From a virus, in IMG/VR virus record IMGVR_UViG_3300045988_176682: a DNA stretch of 64,000 nucleotides. One strand, given 5' to 3'. Below the pieces are notes generated by a model. The model saw nothing but the letters and a program-made list of their open reading frames with translations, was not told the DNA's origin and searched no databases. The translations under genes and the position numbers were made by a program. This document shows, piece after piece, positions 19,006-55,074 of this stretch; positions within the stretch are counted from its first letter, which is position 1, and each line of letters opens with the position of its first letter.

Positions 19006-19140
19006 AGTTTTCTCCTAATAAGTTTACGAAATTATCATAAGTCATAATTTAACCTTTGTAAATACAAAATCCGGCATCTTTCGATGCCGGACCTGCTAAC
19101 CGCTTATTAGGAGTTTTTCTACGGTTAAGTCTCTCAAATA

Positions 19141-27859: not shown

Positions 27860-29629
27860 TTAAAATAAACGATTTTCTCTTGAACTACTATATCCAATTA
27901 AATTTATATTGTCTATAACATTTTTAGATTTATCTTTCAAGGAGTTAGTAGGAACCGCAGTAATCAGACACTCTCTCGTTTCTCCTTTAGCTTCGCCTAA
28001 ACCTTCAACATAATAGATTTTTTCAGCTACCATAGCGTAAGCAGAAGCATGAAAAAAGTGGTCGGTACCGTTTATTTTTCTCCACTCCGGAGCTTTTCCG
28101 GCCTCATCATCTCTAATCATATCGCGGAAATGGAGGATAAGGGTGTCCAAAAGGTCTCCATAACCATAAAGAGACAATTTTTCTTGTGATATACCATCCA
28201 TCACGCGGTCGAGAGCAGCTGTGCGGCTTATGGTATAATAAATTACCTTCCCATCAATATCTTTCTTAGGCTCGGCATCTCGGAACCCGGCATAAATTAC
28301 AGGCATAATTTTACCATTGGACTCCTCAAAAATTTCGTCGGAAAGAGATGTATAAGGGTATCGGTCGATTGCTCCGGCAATAATTCGATACTTATCTTGG
28401 AAATATTTTATTCTTTCTTTTAACTTTTTATAATGTACCTGCTCGAATTTAACAAGAGCCCCTTCAACATATAAAGCAATATGGCAGACTAATCCCACGT
28501 CAATACCAATAAACATAGGCTTGTCTTTGGAAATGTCCGGAGTATTAGGAGATTGTGCCGCCTTACGGATTTTGAACTCTTCCATTCTAGAATTTCCACT
28601 CTCATAATCTTCTCCCAATACAGTATTAAATCCTCGACGGACTTTTCCCTTTTTAATATAATCAGCCATAGTCATAACAAGGTATTTAATGCTGAGAAGG
28701 GGGGAAGAGAAAGGACGAACCTGATAACCTCGGGAATGAAGACGACTTGGATACTTAGGAACCCATTCTCTTCGACTGTCATCATTCAAATCCAAAGGCT
28801 TGCCACACTTGGTACATCTTACATAAGCGGAATCAAGGTCGAGACCAACCGCTATTTTGGCATCAATATCGGTTATAACATTAATTTCTTTAGGCAAATC
28901 AGGAATACAAACACTGTTTAAGTCATATAGCGGAACCTGCTGATGATTACAATGAGGGCATTTATAGAAATACTCATGCTGGTCAGACCCCTCATACTCC
29001 AAGGACACCCCATAACCGGTAAAGGTTGGGGTACTGAACATTTGCTTTATCTTAAAATCAGAGTGTTGGTAGCGGGAATTAAACAGAGCAATGATTTCCA
29101 TATCTGACAAATCAAGCTCATCGTTAATAATCATATCGACCGGGGTGGACGTAGCGTCAGCTTCACTGTTACCGGCAATATAAAGAAAGGAATCTCCCAG
29201 CTGCATAATGGAATTATTACGGACTTCCTTTCCCTCTTTTCCGCCAAACTTAGGAAAATCTCTATCGAGGATGGGTCTGATACGAGTCTTACTGTTTCGG
29301 TCTCTCATCTCGGTAGTTGGGAAAGAATACAAGGCATTAGTTCCCGGGTTTTGTATCAAGAAGCCAAGGGTTTTTCGAATTTGTCCCTCGGTAAGACCAA
29401 CTTGGGATAGCTTTTTACAGCAAAGATTGGGGTGCATGTCGTCCAATATCTGTCTCTGGAACTCGTGTCTCTTAAAAGAAAAAGGCTGTCCTTTTAATGT
29501 GGTATTATTACAAATCCATTCGGCCATGGATGTATCTTTATTAATGGACTCGATTTTTTCAACAATGCTTTTTATGTAGGGGTTAGTATTCCAATCCATA
29601 TCGGTCTCCTTGCTTAAGAGATAAATCAA
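27860..29629 (-). CDS. Terminase large subunit (GpA-like)
   Basis: 589 aa. Internal CPHC...CTKC zinc-finger-like motif typical of GpA-family terminases. First gene of the late arm. Confidence 0.75.
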   Translation of the reverse strand: MIYLLSKETDMDWNTNPYIKSIVEKIESINKDTSMAEWICNNTTLKGQPFSFKRHEFQRQILDDMHPNLCCKKLSQVGLTEGQIRKTLGFLIQNPGTNALYSFPTTEMRDRNSKTRIRPILDRDFPKFGGKEGKEVRNNSIMQLGDSFLYIAGNSEADATSTPVDMIINDELDLSDMEIIALFNSRYQHSDFKIKQMFSTPTFTGYGVSLEYEGSDQHEYFYKCPHCNHQQVPLYDLNSVCIPDLPKEINVITDIDAKIAVGLDLDSAYVRCTKCGKPLDLNDDSRREWVPKYPSRLHSRGYQVRPFSSPLLSIKYLVMTMADYIKKGKVRRGFNTVLGEDYESGNSRMEEFKIRKAAQSPNTPDISKDKPMFIGIDVGLVCHIALYVEGALVKFEQVHYKKLKERIKYFQDKYRIIAGAIDRYPYTSLSDEIFEESNGKIMPVIYAGFRDAEPKKDIDGKVIYYTISRTAALDRVMDGISQEKLSLYGYGDLLDTLILHFRDMIRDDEAGKAPEWRKINGTDHFFHASAYAMVAEKIYYVEGLGEAKGETRECLITAVPTNSLKDKSKNVIDNINLIGYSSSRENRLF

Positions 29630-29653
29630 AAAAAATATTTTTACAAGAAAAAC

Positions 29654-29682
29654 TTGACATAATAAGACAAATGTGATTATAT
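29654..29682 (+). promoter_or_regulatory. Sigma70-like promoter (TTGACA-17-TTATAT)
   Basis: Near-consensus -35 and -10 hexamers with 17-nt spacing. Confidence 0.4.
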
Positions 29683-29779
29683 GAGACTGTTCTTAAGTTA
29701 AAGCATTATAAAAATGTGAACACTCTATTTGTTCCTGCCGATTGAAAATCCTCTCTTTTTAGGGAGGATTTTTTATGTA

Positions 29780-29808
29780 TTGACAAATAGAGAAAAATGA
29801 CATAAACT
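29780..29808 (+). promoter_or_regulatory. Sigma70-like promoter (TTGACA-17-TAAACT) overlapping a 10-bp inverted-repeat arm
   Basis: -35 TTGACA at 29780-29785. IR CTCTATTTGT (29723-29732) / ACAAATAGAG (29783-29792). Confidence 0.4.
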
Positions 29809-29814
29809 AAACCT

Positions 29815-29935
29815 GTGATTTGTAAAGCTCCGCACAGGTTTTTACAAAGGTCCTAAAAGTCCTTATTTAGTTCCTAAACTACATTGATGATTCTTTCGTG
29901 ATTGAAGCCTCCGTCCCCTAAACGGAGGTTTTTTT
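29815..29935 (+). ncRNA. Candidate small RNA / leader transcript (promoter at 29780 to terminator at 29935)
   Basis: About 120 nt bounded by a sigma70-like promoter and an intrinsic terminator. 5' hairpin CCTGTG...CACAGG. No ORF. Confidence 0.3.
29908..29935 (+). terminator. Intrinsic terminator in the divergent control region
   Basis: CCTCCGT(CCCCTAA)ACGGAGG followed by T7. Confidence 0.55.
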
Positions 29936-29936
29936 A

Positions 29937-29965
29937 TTGACAAGGAAAAACGAATGGAATATAAA
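29937..29965 (+). promoter_or_regulatory. Sigma70-like promoter (TTGACA-17-TATAAA) for the early operon
   Basis: -35 at 29937-29942 and -10 at 29960-29965. Suggests the real start codon is at 29984. Confidence 0.4.
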
Positions 29966-30235
29966 GACAAAGTAGGACATAATATGACAGAGGAAAATAT
30001 GAAGAATAAATTAACCCTAAAACAATTCTCTGCCGAAGTTGGCTATTCTACACGCCAATTAAGCAGGTATATTAAGTCTGGTAAGCTATTCCCTCGCCGA
30101 TGGTTGAACGGAAGATGTTATTTTTTGGAAGAAGATATTGAAAAATTTAACAATTTCTTTCAAAATGTTACAAATCCCGCCGTTTTAGACCTTACATTGT
30201 CGGAGAATCCAGATGGAGAAGACGAATTATCCTGA
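29954..30235 (+). CDS. HTH DNA-binding protein (MerR/excisionase-like)
   Basis: LTLKQFSAEVGYSTRQLSRYIKSGKL...RRWLNGRCYFLEEDIEKF. Alternative start at 29984. Confidence 0.55.
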   Translation: MEYKDKVGHNMTEENMKNKLTLKQFSAEVGYSTRQLSRYIKSGKLFPRRWLNGRCYFLEEDIEKFNNFFQNVTNPAVLDLTLSENPDGEDELS

Positions 30236-30656
30236 TATTACCTACCCCCAGGTATTTAATATTCAAACTATTTTTATGAATTTTAAAAAAGACCCTGACT
30301 ATATAAAAAATTCTCCCTACTCAGAGGCGGTAAAGACTGGGTTGGAGAGCATATTCAGGAGAGCCAACGAGCACGAGAACCGTATCCAACGGGTAGATTT
30401 AGTCGATTTGAACCTTGAAGAAGAAGCCAATCTGGTTTATAGTCGAACGAAACAGCTCATGGATAAACCTCTCGAGCCGAATGAGGAACTTTCTATCCTC
30501 AAAAATGCCGCAGTTATGTTGGAAAAATTATTAGACTTGGCTGAAAGAGCTAAAAATCAGCGCTATATTAGGGATTTAGAGCAGAAAATATTGAAAATAG
30601 CTCAAAAGATGCCGGAAGAATCGAGAAATGAATTATTAAATATGTTGAAGGAATAA
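30213..30656 (+). CDS. Hypothetical protein
   Basis: 147-aa ORF in operon context. Confidence 0.5.
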   Translation: MEKTNYPDITYPQVFNIQTIFMNFKKDPDYIKNSPYSEAVKTGLESIFRRANEHENRIQRVDLVDLNLEEEANLVYSRTKQLMDKPLEPNEELSILKNAAVMLEKLLDLAERAKNQRYIRDLEQKILKIAQKMPEESRNELLNMLKE

Positions 30657-34396: not shown

Positions 34397-34459
34397 TCCT
34401 TCTAACCCTCCTAATCCCGGAGTTACCCGGAGAGAGCCCAGAAATCGGATTTGGAAAGA

Positions 34460-34483
34460 CCCTTCCTTTTGGAAGGGTTTTTT
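34460..34483 (+). terminator. Intrinsic terminator
   Basis: CCCTTCC(TTTT)GGAAGGG followed by T6. Confidence 0.6.
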
Positions 34484-34492
34484 ATTGGGTAC

Positions 34493-34756
34493 GGGAAAGG
34501 GAAAAGATAAAAGGGTCACAGTTAGGTTACTGGAAGGTGTCCTAATATGTCCTATCCCGAAAAATTTCGGAATCGGATTCGGGAAAGGGAAAAGATAAAA
34601 GGGTCACAGTTAGGTTACTGGAAGGTGTCCTAATATGTCCTATCCCGAAAAATTTCGGAATCGGATTCGGGAAAGGGAAAAGATAAAAGGGTCACAGTTA
34701 GGTTACTGGAAGGTGTCCTAATATGTCCTATCCCGAAAAATTTCGGAATCGGATTC
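34493..34756. repeat. Three perfect tandem copies of an 88-bp non-coding repeat (candidate iteron/origin or centromere-like array)
   Basis: Identical units starting at 34493, 34581 and 34669 (GGGAAAGGGAAAAGATAAAAGGGTCACAGTTAGG...CGGAATCGGATTC). Period is not a multiple of 3. Confidence 0.85.
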
Positions 34757-34960
34757 GGGAGGGCCCTGTCCCCGGTTCCCTTGCCGATTCTCTCTCAAAA
34801 AAAACATACTACCCTTGCACTAAGTCTTTGATTTTACTTATTTACACCCTCTTTGTTCAATTTTTTATATTTATATGTTGTCAAGCTTTTTTATTAATGT
34901 TACCTTACCACTATAAACAGCGTTTTTAACATTCATATTTTACACACAGAGGATAATACC

Positions 34961-35983: not shown

Positions 35984-36613
35984 CCATATATATTTTTGAG
36001 CGGGATGAGGTTATGAACAGATTATAATCCGGATTCAGAATTATTTAGGGATACTTTACCACGGGTATGGGAGGTTTTAGGTTCGGAGTGTCTCCGAACG
36101 GGGAGAAAGGAGAAAAATTTTAAATCGGGATATGAATCGATTCATAAAAAAGTTAATTTTAGACTAATTTGACGGAAGGAGATTTCAACTACAGGTAGGG
36201 AGATAGGTGAAAAAGCACGCAAAATTTTAACTCAAATGATATTCCTCTCTTGAATATATTTATATTGACATTTGACAAATTTTGAATAAAATATTTCCAG
36301 AATCACCGGATTATAAACAAAACGTCGAATTACGTCAAAATTTCTCTATTTGTCTTTTTTGTCAATCATTCATATTTTAATAAATTATTGATTCTATTAT
36401 ATATTTCTTCTTCTCTATTATTTCTCACTTCGTTTAGAATCTGAGTTTTATTTTTAGACAAAATAATTTTGTATAAAAAAAATAACATAATAGGGTAAAA
36501 ATAAAAACGATGTTTGACTCTTGTAAGGAAAGATTTTATTTTGTAAAAACAAAGACATCTCGTTAGATGATTATCTGGACAAAATTTTAGTCTACATAAA
36601 AAGGAAAAAAATA

Positions 36614-39591: not shown

Positions 39592-39679
39592 AAAAGATAT
39601 ATACATCTATAGAACAAATTAATTGATTCTTAAACTTTTTCGTGATAGGACATAATAAGACATATAAAGGAGATTTCTT

Positions 39680-43004: not shown

Positions 43005-43182
43005 TTTTTATAAGTCTCTTGACATTATCAAAAATAAATGTAAAATGAGGACAATATCGGACATTATAAGACAAAAAGAAATTTCTGTTGAAGCTGAAAA
43101 CAAATTAAAAAACCAGTTAGTGTCTGATGCCAATAAATTTTGTTTGATGCTAGGGATATGTAATGGAAAAAATACCAATTAG
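42988..43182 (+). CDS. Hypothetical protein
   Basis: 64-aa ORF. Confidence 0.4.
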   Translation: MGEVIDFYKSLDIIKNKCKMRTISDIIRQKEISVEAENKLKNQLVSDANKFCLMLGICNGKNTN

Positions 43183-52651: not shown

Positions 52652-53449
52652 ATGGTTTTAATTTATGATGTTAATAACTGGATAAGAGTTAAACTGTCAA
52701 CCGACGGAGACCAGTTAACCATTAACAATTTCTGGTCTGAGGTTTTATACAACTCTTCTAAAGGAGAGGTTCAAATTTTTGTCTCTGATGGTTTTAATTC
52801 GAGAAAAAAGAGAAAAGAAATCTATCCAGAGTATAAAGCAAAAAGAAAGCCTGCCGATGCCTCTATTTATGATGGTATCAATTTCTTTAAGAACCTTTTG
52901 CGTCATGCTCCAAAAAATGTTTTTTATGTAGAAGTCCCGGAAATGGAAGCAGATGATATTATAGCTCATCTGGTAAGATACCGAAATAATTACTACATTG
53001 GAAAAGATATTCATATTATTTCAACCGATAAAGATTTAACCCAGCTTTTAGTTTATCCCGGAGTAACTACTCTGGCTACTCCTCCGGTAGAACCTAGATT
53101 TGTTAGGCTTTATAAAACTTTAGTTGGGGATAATTCAGACAATATTCCGGGAGTGCCGGGAATAGGGAAGTCTTCTTGGGAGAATATCCCGGAAGAAGTA
53201 AAAAAAGAACTTAATATGATGTTGGCCTCCGGCGGGATGTTGACCGAACATTTGGCAGATGAATTAGAAAAATGTTTCAAGCCAAAGCAACTGGAAAATT
53301 TTTATGAAGCTTATTATAATGGTAGTCTGCACATGTTCTTTAAGATTGTAGATTTTATAGATTATCCATTTAATCCGTCAATATTGAAGACAGGAGACGG
53401 AGACTTAAACTTTGTTAACAAGCAACTGAATGAGTTATTTATATTATGA
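52652..53449 (+). CDS. 5'-3' exonuclease / flap endonuclease (FEN, Pol I N-terminal-like)
   Basis: YPEYKAKRK motif, acidic clusters and H3TH GVPGIGKSSWENI. Start at the internal ATG with RBS AGGAG. Confidence 0.7.
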   Translation: MVLIYDVNNWIRVKLSTDGDQLTINNFWSEVLYNSSKGEVQIFVSDGFNSRKKRKEIYPEYKAKRKPADASIYDGINFFKNLLRHAPKNVFYVEVPEMEADDIIAHLVRYRNNYYIGKDIHIISTDKDLTQLLVYPGVTTLATPPVEPRFVRLYKTLVGDNSDNIPGVPGIGKSSWENIPEEVKKELNMMLASGGMLTEHLADELEKCFKPKQLENFYEAYYNGSLHMFFKIVDFIDYPFNPSILKTGDGDLNFVNKQLNELFIL

Positions 53450-55074
53450 GAAACAATGCTTGGCTTAGTTCTGGAGGAGATGAAGCGAGTGATGAAGTAA
53501 TCACTCCCAGATACGTTGTGGAACCTATTGTCAAATATCTTAAGGCTAAAAATTTTAAGGTTGTTTGGTGTCCGTTTGATACGGTAGTGTCCCAATATGT
53601 TCGCGTTCTTTATAAGGAAGGGTTTGATGTCAGGTTTGGACACCGAGACATAGGGCTTGACTTTTTCAAATATGAATGTCCGGAAGCAGATGTCATTGTT
53701 TCAAATCCGCCGTTCAGTTGTTATAGCGATGATACAGAGGTATTTACTAAAAGAGGATGGATTAGATTTCCGAATATATTACCAACTGATGAGATTTTAT
53801 CCGTAAACAATAAAAAAGAAATTAGTTGGGATAAAATTTCGAGAGTTATAAAAAAAGAGGTTAATGAGGATTTATATCATTTTAAAAATAAAAACATGGA
53901 TTTATTAGTTACCTCTGACCACAGGATGTTTGCCTACAATAAATATTCTAATGAGTTATGTATTGGTAAAGATGGGGATTTATTAAGAGCTTCCGAAATT
54001 GGAAGTAAACACTATTTTCCTAAAAATGGATATACTTGGAAAGGAGAGATTAACAACGATTATTTAGTTCTCCCACATACAAAAAATCCCCCTAGGAGTA
54101 AAGTTAGCTTTTATCCTGAACTAAAGATACCTCTAATTGATTGGCTTCCTTTTTTCGGATTATGGTTGGCTGATGGATTCGTTTCTACATATAAAGGAAC
54201 CGGACATGAATATACTGTGGGGATAAAACAAGGAGAATCTAGATGGAGAGAGGTAGAGAATATCTTAAATAAGTTACCTTTTAAATATTCTAAATATATA
54301 AATAAAATATACCCCAGCGATAGGGAAAGAAAAGCTGACTATGCTATATATCAAAAACAATTATGGGATTATATGAACCAATTTGGTAAATCTCAAAATA
54401 AATTTATTCCTTCTTGGATAAAAAATCTTCCTGTGAGGTATTTAAAGCTTCTTATTTATGGCTATACTTTAGGAGATAGTTTTAGACATAAAGGAATAAA
54501 TTCAATAACTACTTCTATTCATTATGGGTCAGTTTCTAAACAGTTGCTAGAAGATATTCAAGAGATATTATTAAAATTAGGAAATATAACTAATATTTCT
54601 CACCAGATTTTAAATAATGGTAATGATTATTATCGCTTAATCTTGAATAAAGATAGTTGCAGTAACAGAGCTATGTATATACGTAAAAATCCTCAAAATA
54701 AGGAACCCTATAATGGGTTAGTATATTGTTTAACTCTAAAAGAGAATAGTATTTTTTTAGTGAGAAGAAACAATAAAATAATATTTTGCGGTAATTGTAA
54801 AGACCAAGTATTGGAAAGACTTTATAAATTAGATAAACCCTTTATGGTTTTATTTCCTGTTCAAGTATTACAGGGAAAGAAAAGAACCAAGTTGTTTATG
54901 AAATATGGGTTGGAGTATCTTGGATTTGATTCCCGTCCTTGTTTTTATACCAAAAATGACTTATCGTCTATAAAAACGGGAAATCATTTTGCCAGCGGAT
55001 ATTATTGCCGGAATGTTCTTCCGGAGAAATTAATTTTTGAAGAATTAAAATTAATACAGGAGCCTTTTATATGA
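53446..55074 (+). CDS. Small phage Dam-like N6-adenine methyltransferase interrupted by an intein (extein about 186 aa)
   Basis: N-extein ...ITPRYVVEPIV...ADVIVSNPPFS. C-extein CKDQVLERLY...FMVLFPVQ.... The intein lies between them. Confidence 0.55.
   Translation: MRNNAWLSSGGDEASDEVITPRYVVEPIVKYLKAKNFKVVWCPFDTVVSQYVRVLYKEGFDVRFGHRDIGLDFFKYECPEADVIVSNPPFSCYSDDTEVFTKRGWIRFPNILPTDEILSVNNKKEISWDKISRVIKKEVNEDLYHFKNKNMDLLVTSDHRMFAYNKYSNELCIGKDGDLLRASEIGSKHYFPKNGYTWKGEINNDYLVLPHTKNPPRSKVSFYPELKIPLIDWLPFFGLWLADGFVSTYKGTGHEYTVGIKQGESRWREVENILNKLPFKYSKYINKIYPSDRERKADYAIYQKQLWDYMNQFGKSQNKFIPSWIKNLPVRYLKLLIYGYTLGDSFRHKGINSITTSIHYGSVSKQLLEDIQEILLKLGNITNISHQILNNGNDYYRLILNKDSCSNRAMYIRKNPQNKEPYNGLVYCLTLKENSIFLVRRNNKIIFCGNCKDQVLERLYKLDKPFMVLFPVQVLQGKKRTKLFMKYGLEYLGFDSRPCFYTKNDLSSIKTGNHFASGYYCRNVLPEKLIFEELKLIQEPFI
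53719..54795 (+). mobile_element. Intein (359 aa) with LAGLIDADG homing endonuclease domain
   Basis: Block A CYSDDTEVFTKRGW. Block B TSDH. LAGLIDADG motifs GLWLADGF and LIYGYTLGDSF. Blocks F/G VYCLTLKENSIFLV...IIFCGN followed by +1 Cys. Confidence 0.75.

Follow-up and report, generated by a model that had tools for sequence, protein, structure and literature searches.

How transcription is controlled between divergent terminase and early genes is the question raised by one locus of a 64,000-nucleotide (nt) stretch of viral DNA, the IMG/VR record IMGVR_UViG_3300045988_176682, which is referred to below as the window. A preliminary description had flagged positions 29630-29953 as a divergent control region with three stacked promoters, an operator-like inverted repeat and a terminator-bounded RNA of about 120 nt, which was thought to be a small regulatory RNA (sRNA) or an attenuated leader controlling the early/late decision. 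The divergent layout itself was confirmed, with the gene of the large terminase subunit (TerL) on the minus strand and the early genes on the plus strand, and it recurs in relatives. As for its control, the region is probably read as an early control region of the host RNA polymerase, in which phased pentamers would form the operator, the first early protein would be a Cro-like autorepressor of the BldC/Xis type and a terminator (T2) would insulate the early promoter (P3). The pentamer array lies just beyond the flagged interval and had not been mentioned in the preliminary description. The following features, in genomic order, form the core of this proposal:

29904 to 29935, plus strand: T2, predicted intrinsic terminator with an 11-bp stem and a 7-nt loop (29904-29932), followed by a T7 run ending at 29935 and adjoining the P3 -35 box; dG -14.8 kcal/mol.
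29937 to 29965, plus strand: P3, predicted early-operon promoter, TTGACA-17-TATAAA.
29966 to 29989, plus strand: proposed operator, GACA x3 (aGACA, gGACA, tGACA) with an exact 10-nt period, spanning about +1 to +20 of P3.
29990 to 30235, plus strand: Shine-Dalgarno sequence GAGGA and gene of a 78-aa stand-alone MerR/BldC/Xis-type winged-helix protein with its ATG at 29999; the proposed autoregulator.

Two further promoters (P1 and P2) and a further terminator (T1) are located upstream of this core and are described below.

Relatives were identified by a search with the terminase protein, which yielded a large clade. The region was taken from relatives at 82, 75, 72, 66, 59, 58, 57, and 54% TerL identity, and further lineages (all carrying the prefix L) were drawn from IMG/VR, metagenomes and genome bins. 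A nucleotide search of positions 29400-30300 against 50,697 phage records revealed no similarity, and the variation among the near-identical public copies L003-L011 was uninformative. Synteny is maintained in the relatives, with the terminase on one side, followed by the control region, the winged-helix gene and the primase. In 13 of the 14 lineages whose early genes begin with an HTH_17 gene (51-100% TerL identity), the same core order is found: an intrinsic terminator, a promoter whose TTGAC(A/T) box follows the last terminator, three to seven pentamers at a 10-nt period, a Shine-Dalgarno sequence and the winged-helix gene. The four-fold degenerate sites of TerL are saturated between lineages (37-44% identity), and anything that can still be aligned between them is therefore constrained. 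Just three intergenic blocks are alignable across lineages, namely the 3' arm of T2 with its T-run and the last -35 box, the phased repeat that follows the last promoter and precedes the Shine-Dalgarno sequence, and the -35 box of P1. The P3 region includes a 65-nt block with 85% identity to L012.

The terminator that had been placed at 29908-29935 was recovered with a slightly larger extent. T2 is orthologous across lineages and the changes within its stem are compensatory, the two arms being CCTCCGT/ACGGAGG in the window, CCTCGGT/ACCGAGG in L026, CCTCAGTT/AACTGAGG in L029 and L032, and CCTCTTG/CAAGAGG in L023. Substitutions in terminator stems were also found among strains and both are pairing-neutral: 29765 A>G in T1 gives a U.G pair and 29907 G>A in T2 converts G.U into A-U. 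In 12 near-identical strains, not a single substitution affects the -35 boxes or the GACA repeats. Both T1 and T2 consist of a G+C-rich hairpin directly before a U-run, as predicted for intrinsic (Rho-independent) terminators, and they represent two of only four strong plus-strand terminators in the whole window. The late module contains an element of the same layout on the minus strand (19034-19094), where a terminator with a 12-bp stem (19094-19067) precedes a promoter TTTACA-17-TATGAT (19062-19034).

The periodicity of the array was quantified across 19 lineages. Autocorrelation at lag 10 amounted to 0.48, compared to about 0.28 at other lags, and lag 10 was the maximum in 17 of these lineages. 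Within the window, GACA-N6-GACA was observed nine times (0.76 expected) and the GACA triple twice (0.07 expected), both triples being located directly after a TTGACA promoter. All three GACA motifs of the window lineage are situated between the predicted transcription start and the Shine-Dalgarno sequence, and a related site at 39649 lies just before another Shine-Dalgarno sequence, which would be the arrangement expected if the pentamers acted in the mRNA, as a site in the 5' untranslated region for a translational repressor or another RNA-binding protein. This explanation is the least probable of all those considered here. In L023, L024, L026, L046, L115, and L191, the array reaches into the promoter spacer and the -10 hexamer and thus into untranscribed DNA, which favors a DNA site over an RNA site. 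Moreover, the strict 10-nt period equals one helical turn of DNA, an 88-bp tandem repeat elsewhere in the window carries the motif on the other strand and away from genes, and the adjoining protein has a DNA-binding fold that covaries with the motif.

The gene of this protein had been assigned a start at 29954, which is impossible because that ATG precedes the P3 -10 hexamer (29960-65). The aligned homologues and the GAGGA sequence both point to a start at 29999 and hence to a product of 78 aa; gene callers select 29984, whereas in the closest relative they choose the position equivalent to 29999. The protein shows matches to Pfam HTH_17 (26.8 bits, cut-off 27), to MerR_1, where the 21.6 bits equal the cut-off, and to phrog_66, annotated as “excisionase and transcriptional regulator”; its homologues have HTH_17 among their recorded domains. 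When 12 homologues were combined into a profile, matches to BldC (PDB 6AMA), RacA, the Xis of mycobacteriophage Pukovnik (gp37) and P2 Cox were obtained. In a single-sequence structure model, the order beta-H-H-beta-beta-H of a MerR-type winged helix was obtained (pLDDT 72, above 80 for residues 1-50), and Foldseek matched the model to RacA, BldC, MtaN, and Xis. Members of the family comprise 59-89 residues, and the 78-aa protein contains neither a coiled coil nor an effector domain. An IMG/VR search with the winged-helix alignment returned only two loci, both already known, and the 78-aa protein, used as query in a word-indexed protein search, retrieved no cluster other than its own. A stand-alone winged helix of about 60-90 aa next to direct repeats that are spaced by about one helical turn and vary in number is the combination known from BldC/Xis/Cox/Apl-type systems. 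The winged-helix domain is followed by a variable linker and then by a conserved C-terminal peptide, which reads LDLT in the window subclade (window, L012, L016, L018, L022) and EPL(I/V)(L/F)DG in L023-L046 and could be a partner-docking motif.

The start of the recognition helix was found to track the pentamer in seven classes, and none of the 19 lineages was discordant:

S-x-R-Q with [AG]GACA.
S-Y-R-[TS] with TGACA.
S-Y-Q-T with TAACA, the helix type of L029, L046, and L115.
S-S-R-T with TGTCA.
[SP]-R-R-T with GTGTGC[CA]A.
T-R-Q-T with GTAAC.
T-R-P-T with ATGTAAA.

In protein-DNA complexes, arginine usually contacts guanine and glutamine usually contacts adenine. The exchange of Arg for Gln that accompanies the change from G to A in the pentamer fits these contacts. 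An IMG/VR scan for TAACA x3 returned only unrelated random matches. In L190, L192, L193, L116, and L033, a Cys-rich protein of about 190 aa is encoded before the winged-helix gene and the upstream promoter-terminator units described below are missing; the first promoter nevertheless has two to four repeats at a 10-nt period (GTGTGC, GTAAC, or ATGTAAA).

The signals, their positional conservation, the compensatory changes in T2, the 10-bp phasing and the helix/pentamer covariation are computed properties of these genomes, from which we infer the following course of binding and repression. Upon entry of the phage DNA, host sigma-70/sigma-A polymerase would fire P1, P2, and P3. The accumulating winged-helix protein would then line up head-to-tail on the pentamers with one protomer per helical turn, and the occupied array would block P3, resulting in a Cro-like negative feedback on the early operon. 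T2 would halt transcripts arriving from upstream, so that the operator-controlled P3 would provide the sole entry into the early operon. The protein may also occupy GACA motifs elsewhere, for which the window offers the following candidates:

29656 to 29669, plus strand: GACA-N6-GACA operator-like pair over the P1 -35 box and spacer, 91% identical to the L026 operator.
34492 to 34760, no strand assigned: perfect 88-bp x 3.1 tandem repeat; each copy contains GGACATATTAGGACA (minus strand), an iteron-like CGGATTCGGGA and two small palindromes.
39649 to 39662, plus strand: GACATAATAAGACA pair located immediately before the Shine-Dalgarno sequence of open reading frame (ORF) 39680, which has a weak HTH match.
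43019 to 43073, plus strand: second promoter of the same layout, TTGACA-16-TAAAAT and, directly after it, GACA x3 with a 10-nt period.

The promoter at 43019 and the pair at 39649 suggest a small regulon of the winged-helix protein in the window lineage, while the 88-bp repeat array is a candidate for an origin of replication or a regulator sink. A strong terminator (34454-83) precedes the 88-bp repeats and an AT-rich stretch follows them (34454-34950). In L326, a related array, CCGGATTTGGGA x 10.8, occupies the syntenic place.

The recurrence of the motif in this origin-like array also bears on another explanation, according to which the repeats are packaging or replication sites and the winged-helix protein is a minimal small terminase subunit or an origin-binding protein. 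In phage lambda, gpNu1, a protein with a MerR-like winged helix, binds the R sites in cosB. No small-terminase gene was seen adjoining TerL in the window, the winged-helix gene lies next to TerL in divergent orientation, and the C-terminal peptide (LDLT or EPLILDG) could dock a partner. Such a role is nevertheless improbable, as the array is positioned exactly over the promoter and start of the early operon in every lineage, and in the window also at the 43019 promoter, while the origin-like array of L326 lacks the pentamer of that lineage. In addition, the protein, with its 59-89 residues, is devoid of the oligomerization domain typical of small terminases, and its gene stands first or at an early position in the early operon, not in the late operon.

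Several observations weigh against autorepression of P3 by the winged-helix protein. The structure model was built without an alignment (pLDDT 72) and the Foldseek E-values are weak (3e-3). The covariation of helix and pentamer tracks phylogeny, which leaves few independent events. The -10 hexamers of P1 (TTATAT, no A2) and P3 (TATAAA, no T6) are imperfect, and a consensus scan passes P2 alone. A wider regulon is not general, as the promoter of the gene itself is the sole place within +/-10 kb at which L326 has phased TGACA; in L325, too, the phased motif was found only at the promoter of the winged-helix gene. Finally, the scheme gives no reason for the constitutive promoter-terminator units upstream of T2 and P3, which are composed of the following features:

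29654 to 29682, plus strand: P1, -35 box TTGACA, 17-nt spacer with a preceding TGn, and a poor -10 hexamer TTATAT (TATATG at 18 nt).
29690 to 29776, plus strand: candidate non-coding RNA A of about 88 nt, with ends predicted from P1 and T1; folding z of the body -0.19.
29723 to 29792, no strand assigned: inverted repeat CTCTATTTGT (29723-32) / ACAAATAGAG (29783-92), which brackets T1 and overlaps the P2 -35 box with its right arm.
29744 to 29773 and the adjoining T6 run, plus strand: T1, predicted intrinsic terminator with a 13-bp stem and a 4-nt loop; dG -15.9 kcal/mol.
29780 to 29808, plus strand: P2, TTGACA-17-TAAACT, the sole promoter accepted by the consensus scan (10/12).
29809 to 29848, plus strand: two interleaved hairpins, 29809-17/29833-41 and 29819-26/29841-48, just the second of which lies wholly within the predicted transcript.
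29815 to 29935, plus strand: candidate non-coding RNA B of about 121 nt, the previously proposed sRNA, with ends predicted from P2 and T2; folding z of the body -2.1.

Exact TTGACA boxes are located at 29654-59, 29780-85, and 29937-42, all on the plus strand and with 17-nt spacers. The window contains 20 plus-strand TTGACA sequences, and the presence of three of them within 400 nt corresponds to a Poisson P of 3e-4. The idea of host-type promoters stacked in the control region was supported, as were the positions, -35 boxes and spacers assigned to them, while the proposed -10 pattern TAxAxT is true of P2 (TAAACT) only. The P1 -35 block AAAAACTTGACATAA is common to the window and L012, and a TTGAC(A/T) box exists at the P1 position in every lineage that has a promoter-terminator unit. 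The -10/start region of P2, ACTAAACCTGT, is also found in P1 of L024 and L025. T1, which had been overlooked, sits between the arms of the inverted repeat, and its presence between P1 and P2 results in two promoter-to-terminator units instead of one. The signals of the predicted RNA of about 120 nt are real, but a second unit of about 88 nt stands next to it. The 5' hairpin attributed to this RNA starts right after the -10 hexamer (29803-08), and most of its 5' arm precedes the expected transcription start at about 29815.

The original interpretation combined two proposals, namely that the RNA from P2 sets the early/late decision as an sRNA or attenuated leader and that CTCTATTTGT/ACAAATAGAG is the operator of a helix-turn-helix (HTH) protein. 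P2 and T2 are real, and the 10-bp inverted repeat exists, is perfect and has one arm on the P2 -35 box. However, 89 of 1000 dinucleotide shuffles of 29600-29998 contained a perfect inverted repeat that was 10 bp or longer and had a gap not exceeding 100, which places the observed repeat at chance level. The repeat is absent from every relative compared, a terminator occupies the 50 bp between its arms and it is polymorphic in strain L111 (29723 C>T). A palindromic operator of a dimeric HTH repressor was therefore rejected, as the half-sites are not closely spaced, not above chance and not conserved. With respect to the RNA, searches for an alternative antiterminator fold competing with T1 or T2, a leader peptide and a riboswitch or leader family yielded none of these. 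T2 precedes P3, the early gene's own promoter, and read-through is consequently not needed for expression of the early operon. The body of RNA B is not conserved, and relatives manage with zero or one unit. Taken as a whole, the original interpretation is very unlikely, slightly more so than a role of the repeats in packaging or replication, and the data lend no support to a conserved attenuator or early/late riboregulator. A second long, AT-rich, non-coding stretch (35984-36613) repeats the left arm of the inverted repeat at 36341-54 (TTTCTCTATTTGTC), and it also contains a promoter-like TTGACAtTTGACA...TAAAAT at 36265 and a TTGACT at 36514. A 19-nt palindromic block, GATATGAATCGATTCATAA, is present twice in the window (36130-48 and 36705-23).

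By their signals, the promoter-terminator cassettes are genuine transcription units, and they appear to be lineage-specific, exchangeable and non-coding. Their number is zero in L046, one in most lineages, two in the window, L018, and L191, and four in L012. The two units of the window have their own promoter, their own terminator and no coding potential, as predicted for sRNA genes in general. It is conceivable, though it can be put forward only tentatively, that the cassettes are genes for trans-acting small RNAs that are made at once on infection, as fast-turnover accessories aimed at host mRNAs or defenses and perhaps also involved in local control; this would be compatible with P3 being governed by the phased operator. 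In all lineages, each cassette has preserved its near-consensus -35 box intact together with a strong terminator, also where two to four copies are present, and none contains a Shine-Dalgarno sequence with an ORF, the only “start codons” being the TTG triplets of the -35 boxes. The bodies of L029 and L032 align with a z of 7.8 and share blocks of about 86% identity, compared to 39% (TerL) and 66% (winged-helix gene) at four-fold sites. Clusters of intergenic small RNAs, whose role is unknown, have also been reported for phage LUZ7 (PMC9163698).

Other observations do not favor this explanation. Between lineages, neither the sequence nor the fold of the bodies is conserved; they are unalignable, and a multiple alignment joins only promoters and terminators. 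Exceptions are the pair L029/L032 and the short start ACTAAACCTGT, which is common to unit B of the window and L024. Homologues of RNA A were found only in near-identical strains. The mean folding z of 17 cassette bodies is -0.16, and only unit B of the window reaches -2.1. No match to Rfam 15 at the gathering score was obtained in the window or 17 relatives. At a permissive E-value, GcvB (RF00022) was the only match, over a 214-nt stretch (29723-29936). It was rejected, since its 32.1 bits fall short of the gathering score (42), T1 and P2 lie within the matched stretch, and eight relatives show no such match (E <= 0.05). A tRNA/tmRNA scan found none, and predicted RNA duplexes with 92 phage ribosome-binding regions and three operator-bearing leaders were no better than those of shuffled controls.

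Diversity within lineages was considered as a further indication. Substitutions amount to 1.1% in the intergenic region compared to 6.6% at TerL four-fold sites, and those between L012 and L014 are found mostly in promoter spacers and not in the bodies. However, synonymous diversity of the two downstream genes is equally low (2.4%), and the low intergenic diversity can therefore not be credited to selection on the RNA bodies. The low-diversity valley itself extends over about 1.2 kb (window 29600-30656; L012/L014, L018/L019, L026/L027) and recurs in five lineages. The strain pairs concerned exhibit 4-12% four-fold differences in the terminase and primase genes and nearly no synonymous ones in the first two early genes or differences in the control region. 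In L191, which was binned with Alistipes, about 480 nt separate the second promoter from the last terminator, about 130-650 nt upstream of the terminase gene; this stretch carries no called gene, is richer in G+C and in hairpins and has no Rfam match at the gathering score.

A bolder version of the small-RNA explanation, and accordingly a more doubtful one, regards the cassettes as “non-coding morons,” i.e., exchangeable early small-RNA genes in zero to four copies that would be swapped wholesale between syntenic gut phages, expressed by host polymerase in the first minutes and directed against host mRNAs or defenses. The low-diversity valley would then reflect selection on the RNA locus.

The opposite side of the control region is defined by the following features:

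27860 to 29599, minus strand: TerL gene, gpA type (phrog_675, E 8e-100; Pfam GpA_ATPase, E 5e-16).
29618 to 29646, minus strand: candidate weak terminase-strand promoter TTGTAA-17-TATCTC, back-to-back with P1 and with 7 bp separating the -35 boxes.

Better matches are present at the homologous terminase-strand position of relatives, including TTGCAA-17-TAATTT in L012, TTGACT-17-TAATTT in L032, TTGACT-17-TAGGCT in L029, and TTGACA-17-TAAGAT in L046. In relatives, an opposite-strand TTGAC box is located 1-16 bp from the P1 -35 box, with a TAAnnT-type hexamer 16-17 nt further toward the terminase gene. These opposed boxes therefore fit back-to-back divergent promoters and not a palindromic operator. 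Two perfect minus-strand TATAAT hexamers (29712-07 and 29681-76) both lack a -35 box. The GACA pair at P1 would sit at about -44 to -57 relative to the candidate terminase-strand promoter, and it is a matter of speculation that the winged-helix regulator also acts on terminase transcription.

The source is probably a virulent phage with a genome of about 73 kb, known from metagenomes of the human gut. In the 64-kb window, structural genes occupy the minus strand (1-29599) and replication genes the plus strand. The 579-aa TerL product is predicted identically in 16 public contigs, and the portal gene comes after TerL on the terminase strand. The plus strand encodes, in this order, the small HTH_17/MerR-type protein, a 147-aa protein, a Prim-Pol/D5 primase, a helicase, exonucleases, and a family-A DNA polymerase. 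A 542-aa ORF (53446-55074) between the 5'-3' exonuclease and the polymerase shows matches to LAGLIDADG and intein-splicing domains, and the window opens, at positions 1-59, with a 9-nt unit repeated perfectly in tandem (GCTCCGGCT x 6.6). A non-exhaustive scan of 18 window proteins revealed no integrase; about 10 kb of the genome lie outside the window. The closest isolated phages by TerL, at only about 38% identity, are Achromobacter phage JWF, Caulobacter phage Seuss, and Pseudoalteromonas phage KB12-38. Many public assemblies contain the same phage, in contigs of 66-75 kb, and one related contig is labeled human gut metagenome. Metagenome-assembled-genome bins with relatives give conflicting hosts (Eubacteriales versus Bacteroidales, Alistipes, and Muribaculaceae). 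From the TTGACA/TATAAT promoters and the strong GGAGG-type Shine-Dalgarno sequences, we infer a Bacillota-like look.

As the host of the clade is uncultured, its early regulation can be read from sequence only. A regulator-operator pair with seven natural specificity variants, including an Arg/Gln switch matched to G/A, could serve as a model for the reading of direct repeats by BldC/Xis-type proteins and could supply orthogonal repressor-operator parts. The recurring order of terminator, promoter and phased operator represents a design rule that aids the annotation of early promoters and gene starts in related metagenomic phages, and the variable cassettes provide a defined place to seek phage small RNAs in gut metatranscriptomes.

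Several known systems share individual traits with this region. The first early product of phage lambda, Cro, lowers the activity of its own promoter by binding as a dimer to palindromic operators. The proposed autorepression by the first product from a promoter that lies back-to-back with a divergent one is functionally analogous to Cro at OR, whereas Cro differs in its fold and in its dimeric binding to palindromes and does not involve terminator-insulated upstream units. Lambda oop and P22 sar are short promoter-to-terminator RNAs that are antisense to specific genes. Like these RNAs and sRNA1-3 of LUZ7 (PMC9163698), the predicted window units would be small, non-coding, equipped with their own promoter and intrinsic terminator and located in a regulatory or intergenic region. 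Unlike oop and sar, they overlap no gene, vary between zero and four copies and are not conserved between lineages. GcvB resembles the region in two hairpin-plus-U-run elements of similar spacing, but the match is sub-threshold and the region is not a member of this family.

Closer parallels exist among small DNA-binding proteins. Apl and other directionality factors recognize direct repeats that are spaced by one helical turn and situated between early promoters (PMC7498355). Sites of this spacing between or over early promoters, bound cooperatively and in multiples, are typical of 186 Apl and P2 Cox (PDB 4LHF), two recombination directionality factors that also serve as repressors of early promoters; Cox is in addition a weak profile match. 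These proteins, however, belong to temperate phages and also direct excision, and no integrase was seen here in the non-exhaustive scan. Gp36 of the lytic mycobacteriophage D29, likewise a small MerR/Xis-like protein, binds direct repeats and represses early and late phage genes without a role in excision (PMC12266134). The D29 site consists of two GC-rich 8-mers 13 bp apart, whereas here the promoter of the regulator itself carries three to seven pentamers in an AT context that recur every 10 bp. BldC binds a variable number of direct repeats by asymmetric head-to-tail oligomerization (PMC5859096). The Streptomyces protein (PDB 6AMA/6AMK) is the best sequence-profile match and a top fold match, and it is also a small stand-alone MerR-like winged helix without a dimerization or effector domain. 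It differs as a cellular developmental regulator with the repeat AATT-N4-C (about 9 bp), compared to the pentamers at exactly 10 bp that appear to cover the own promoter of the first early gene of a phage. All components of the control region belong to known types. The novelty lies in how they are combined and in the naturally occurring series of specificity variants, and current understanding is not overturned.

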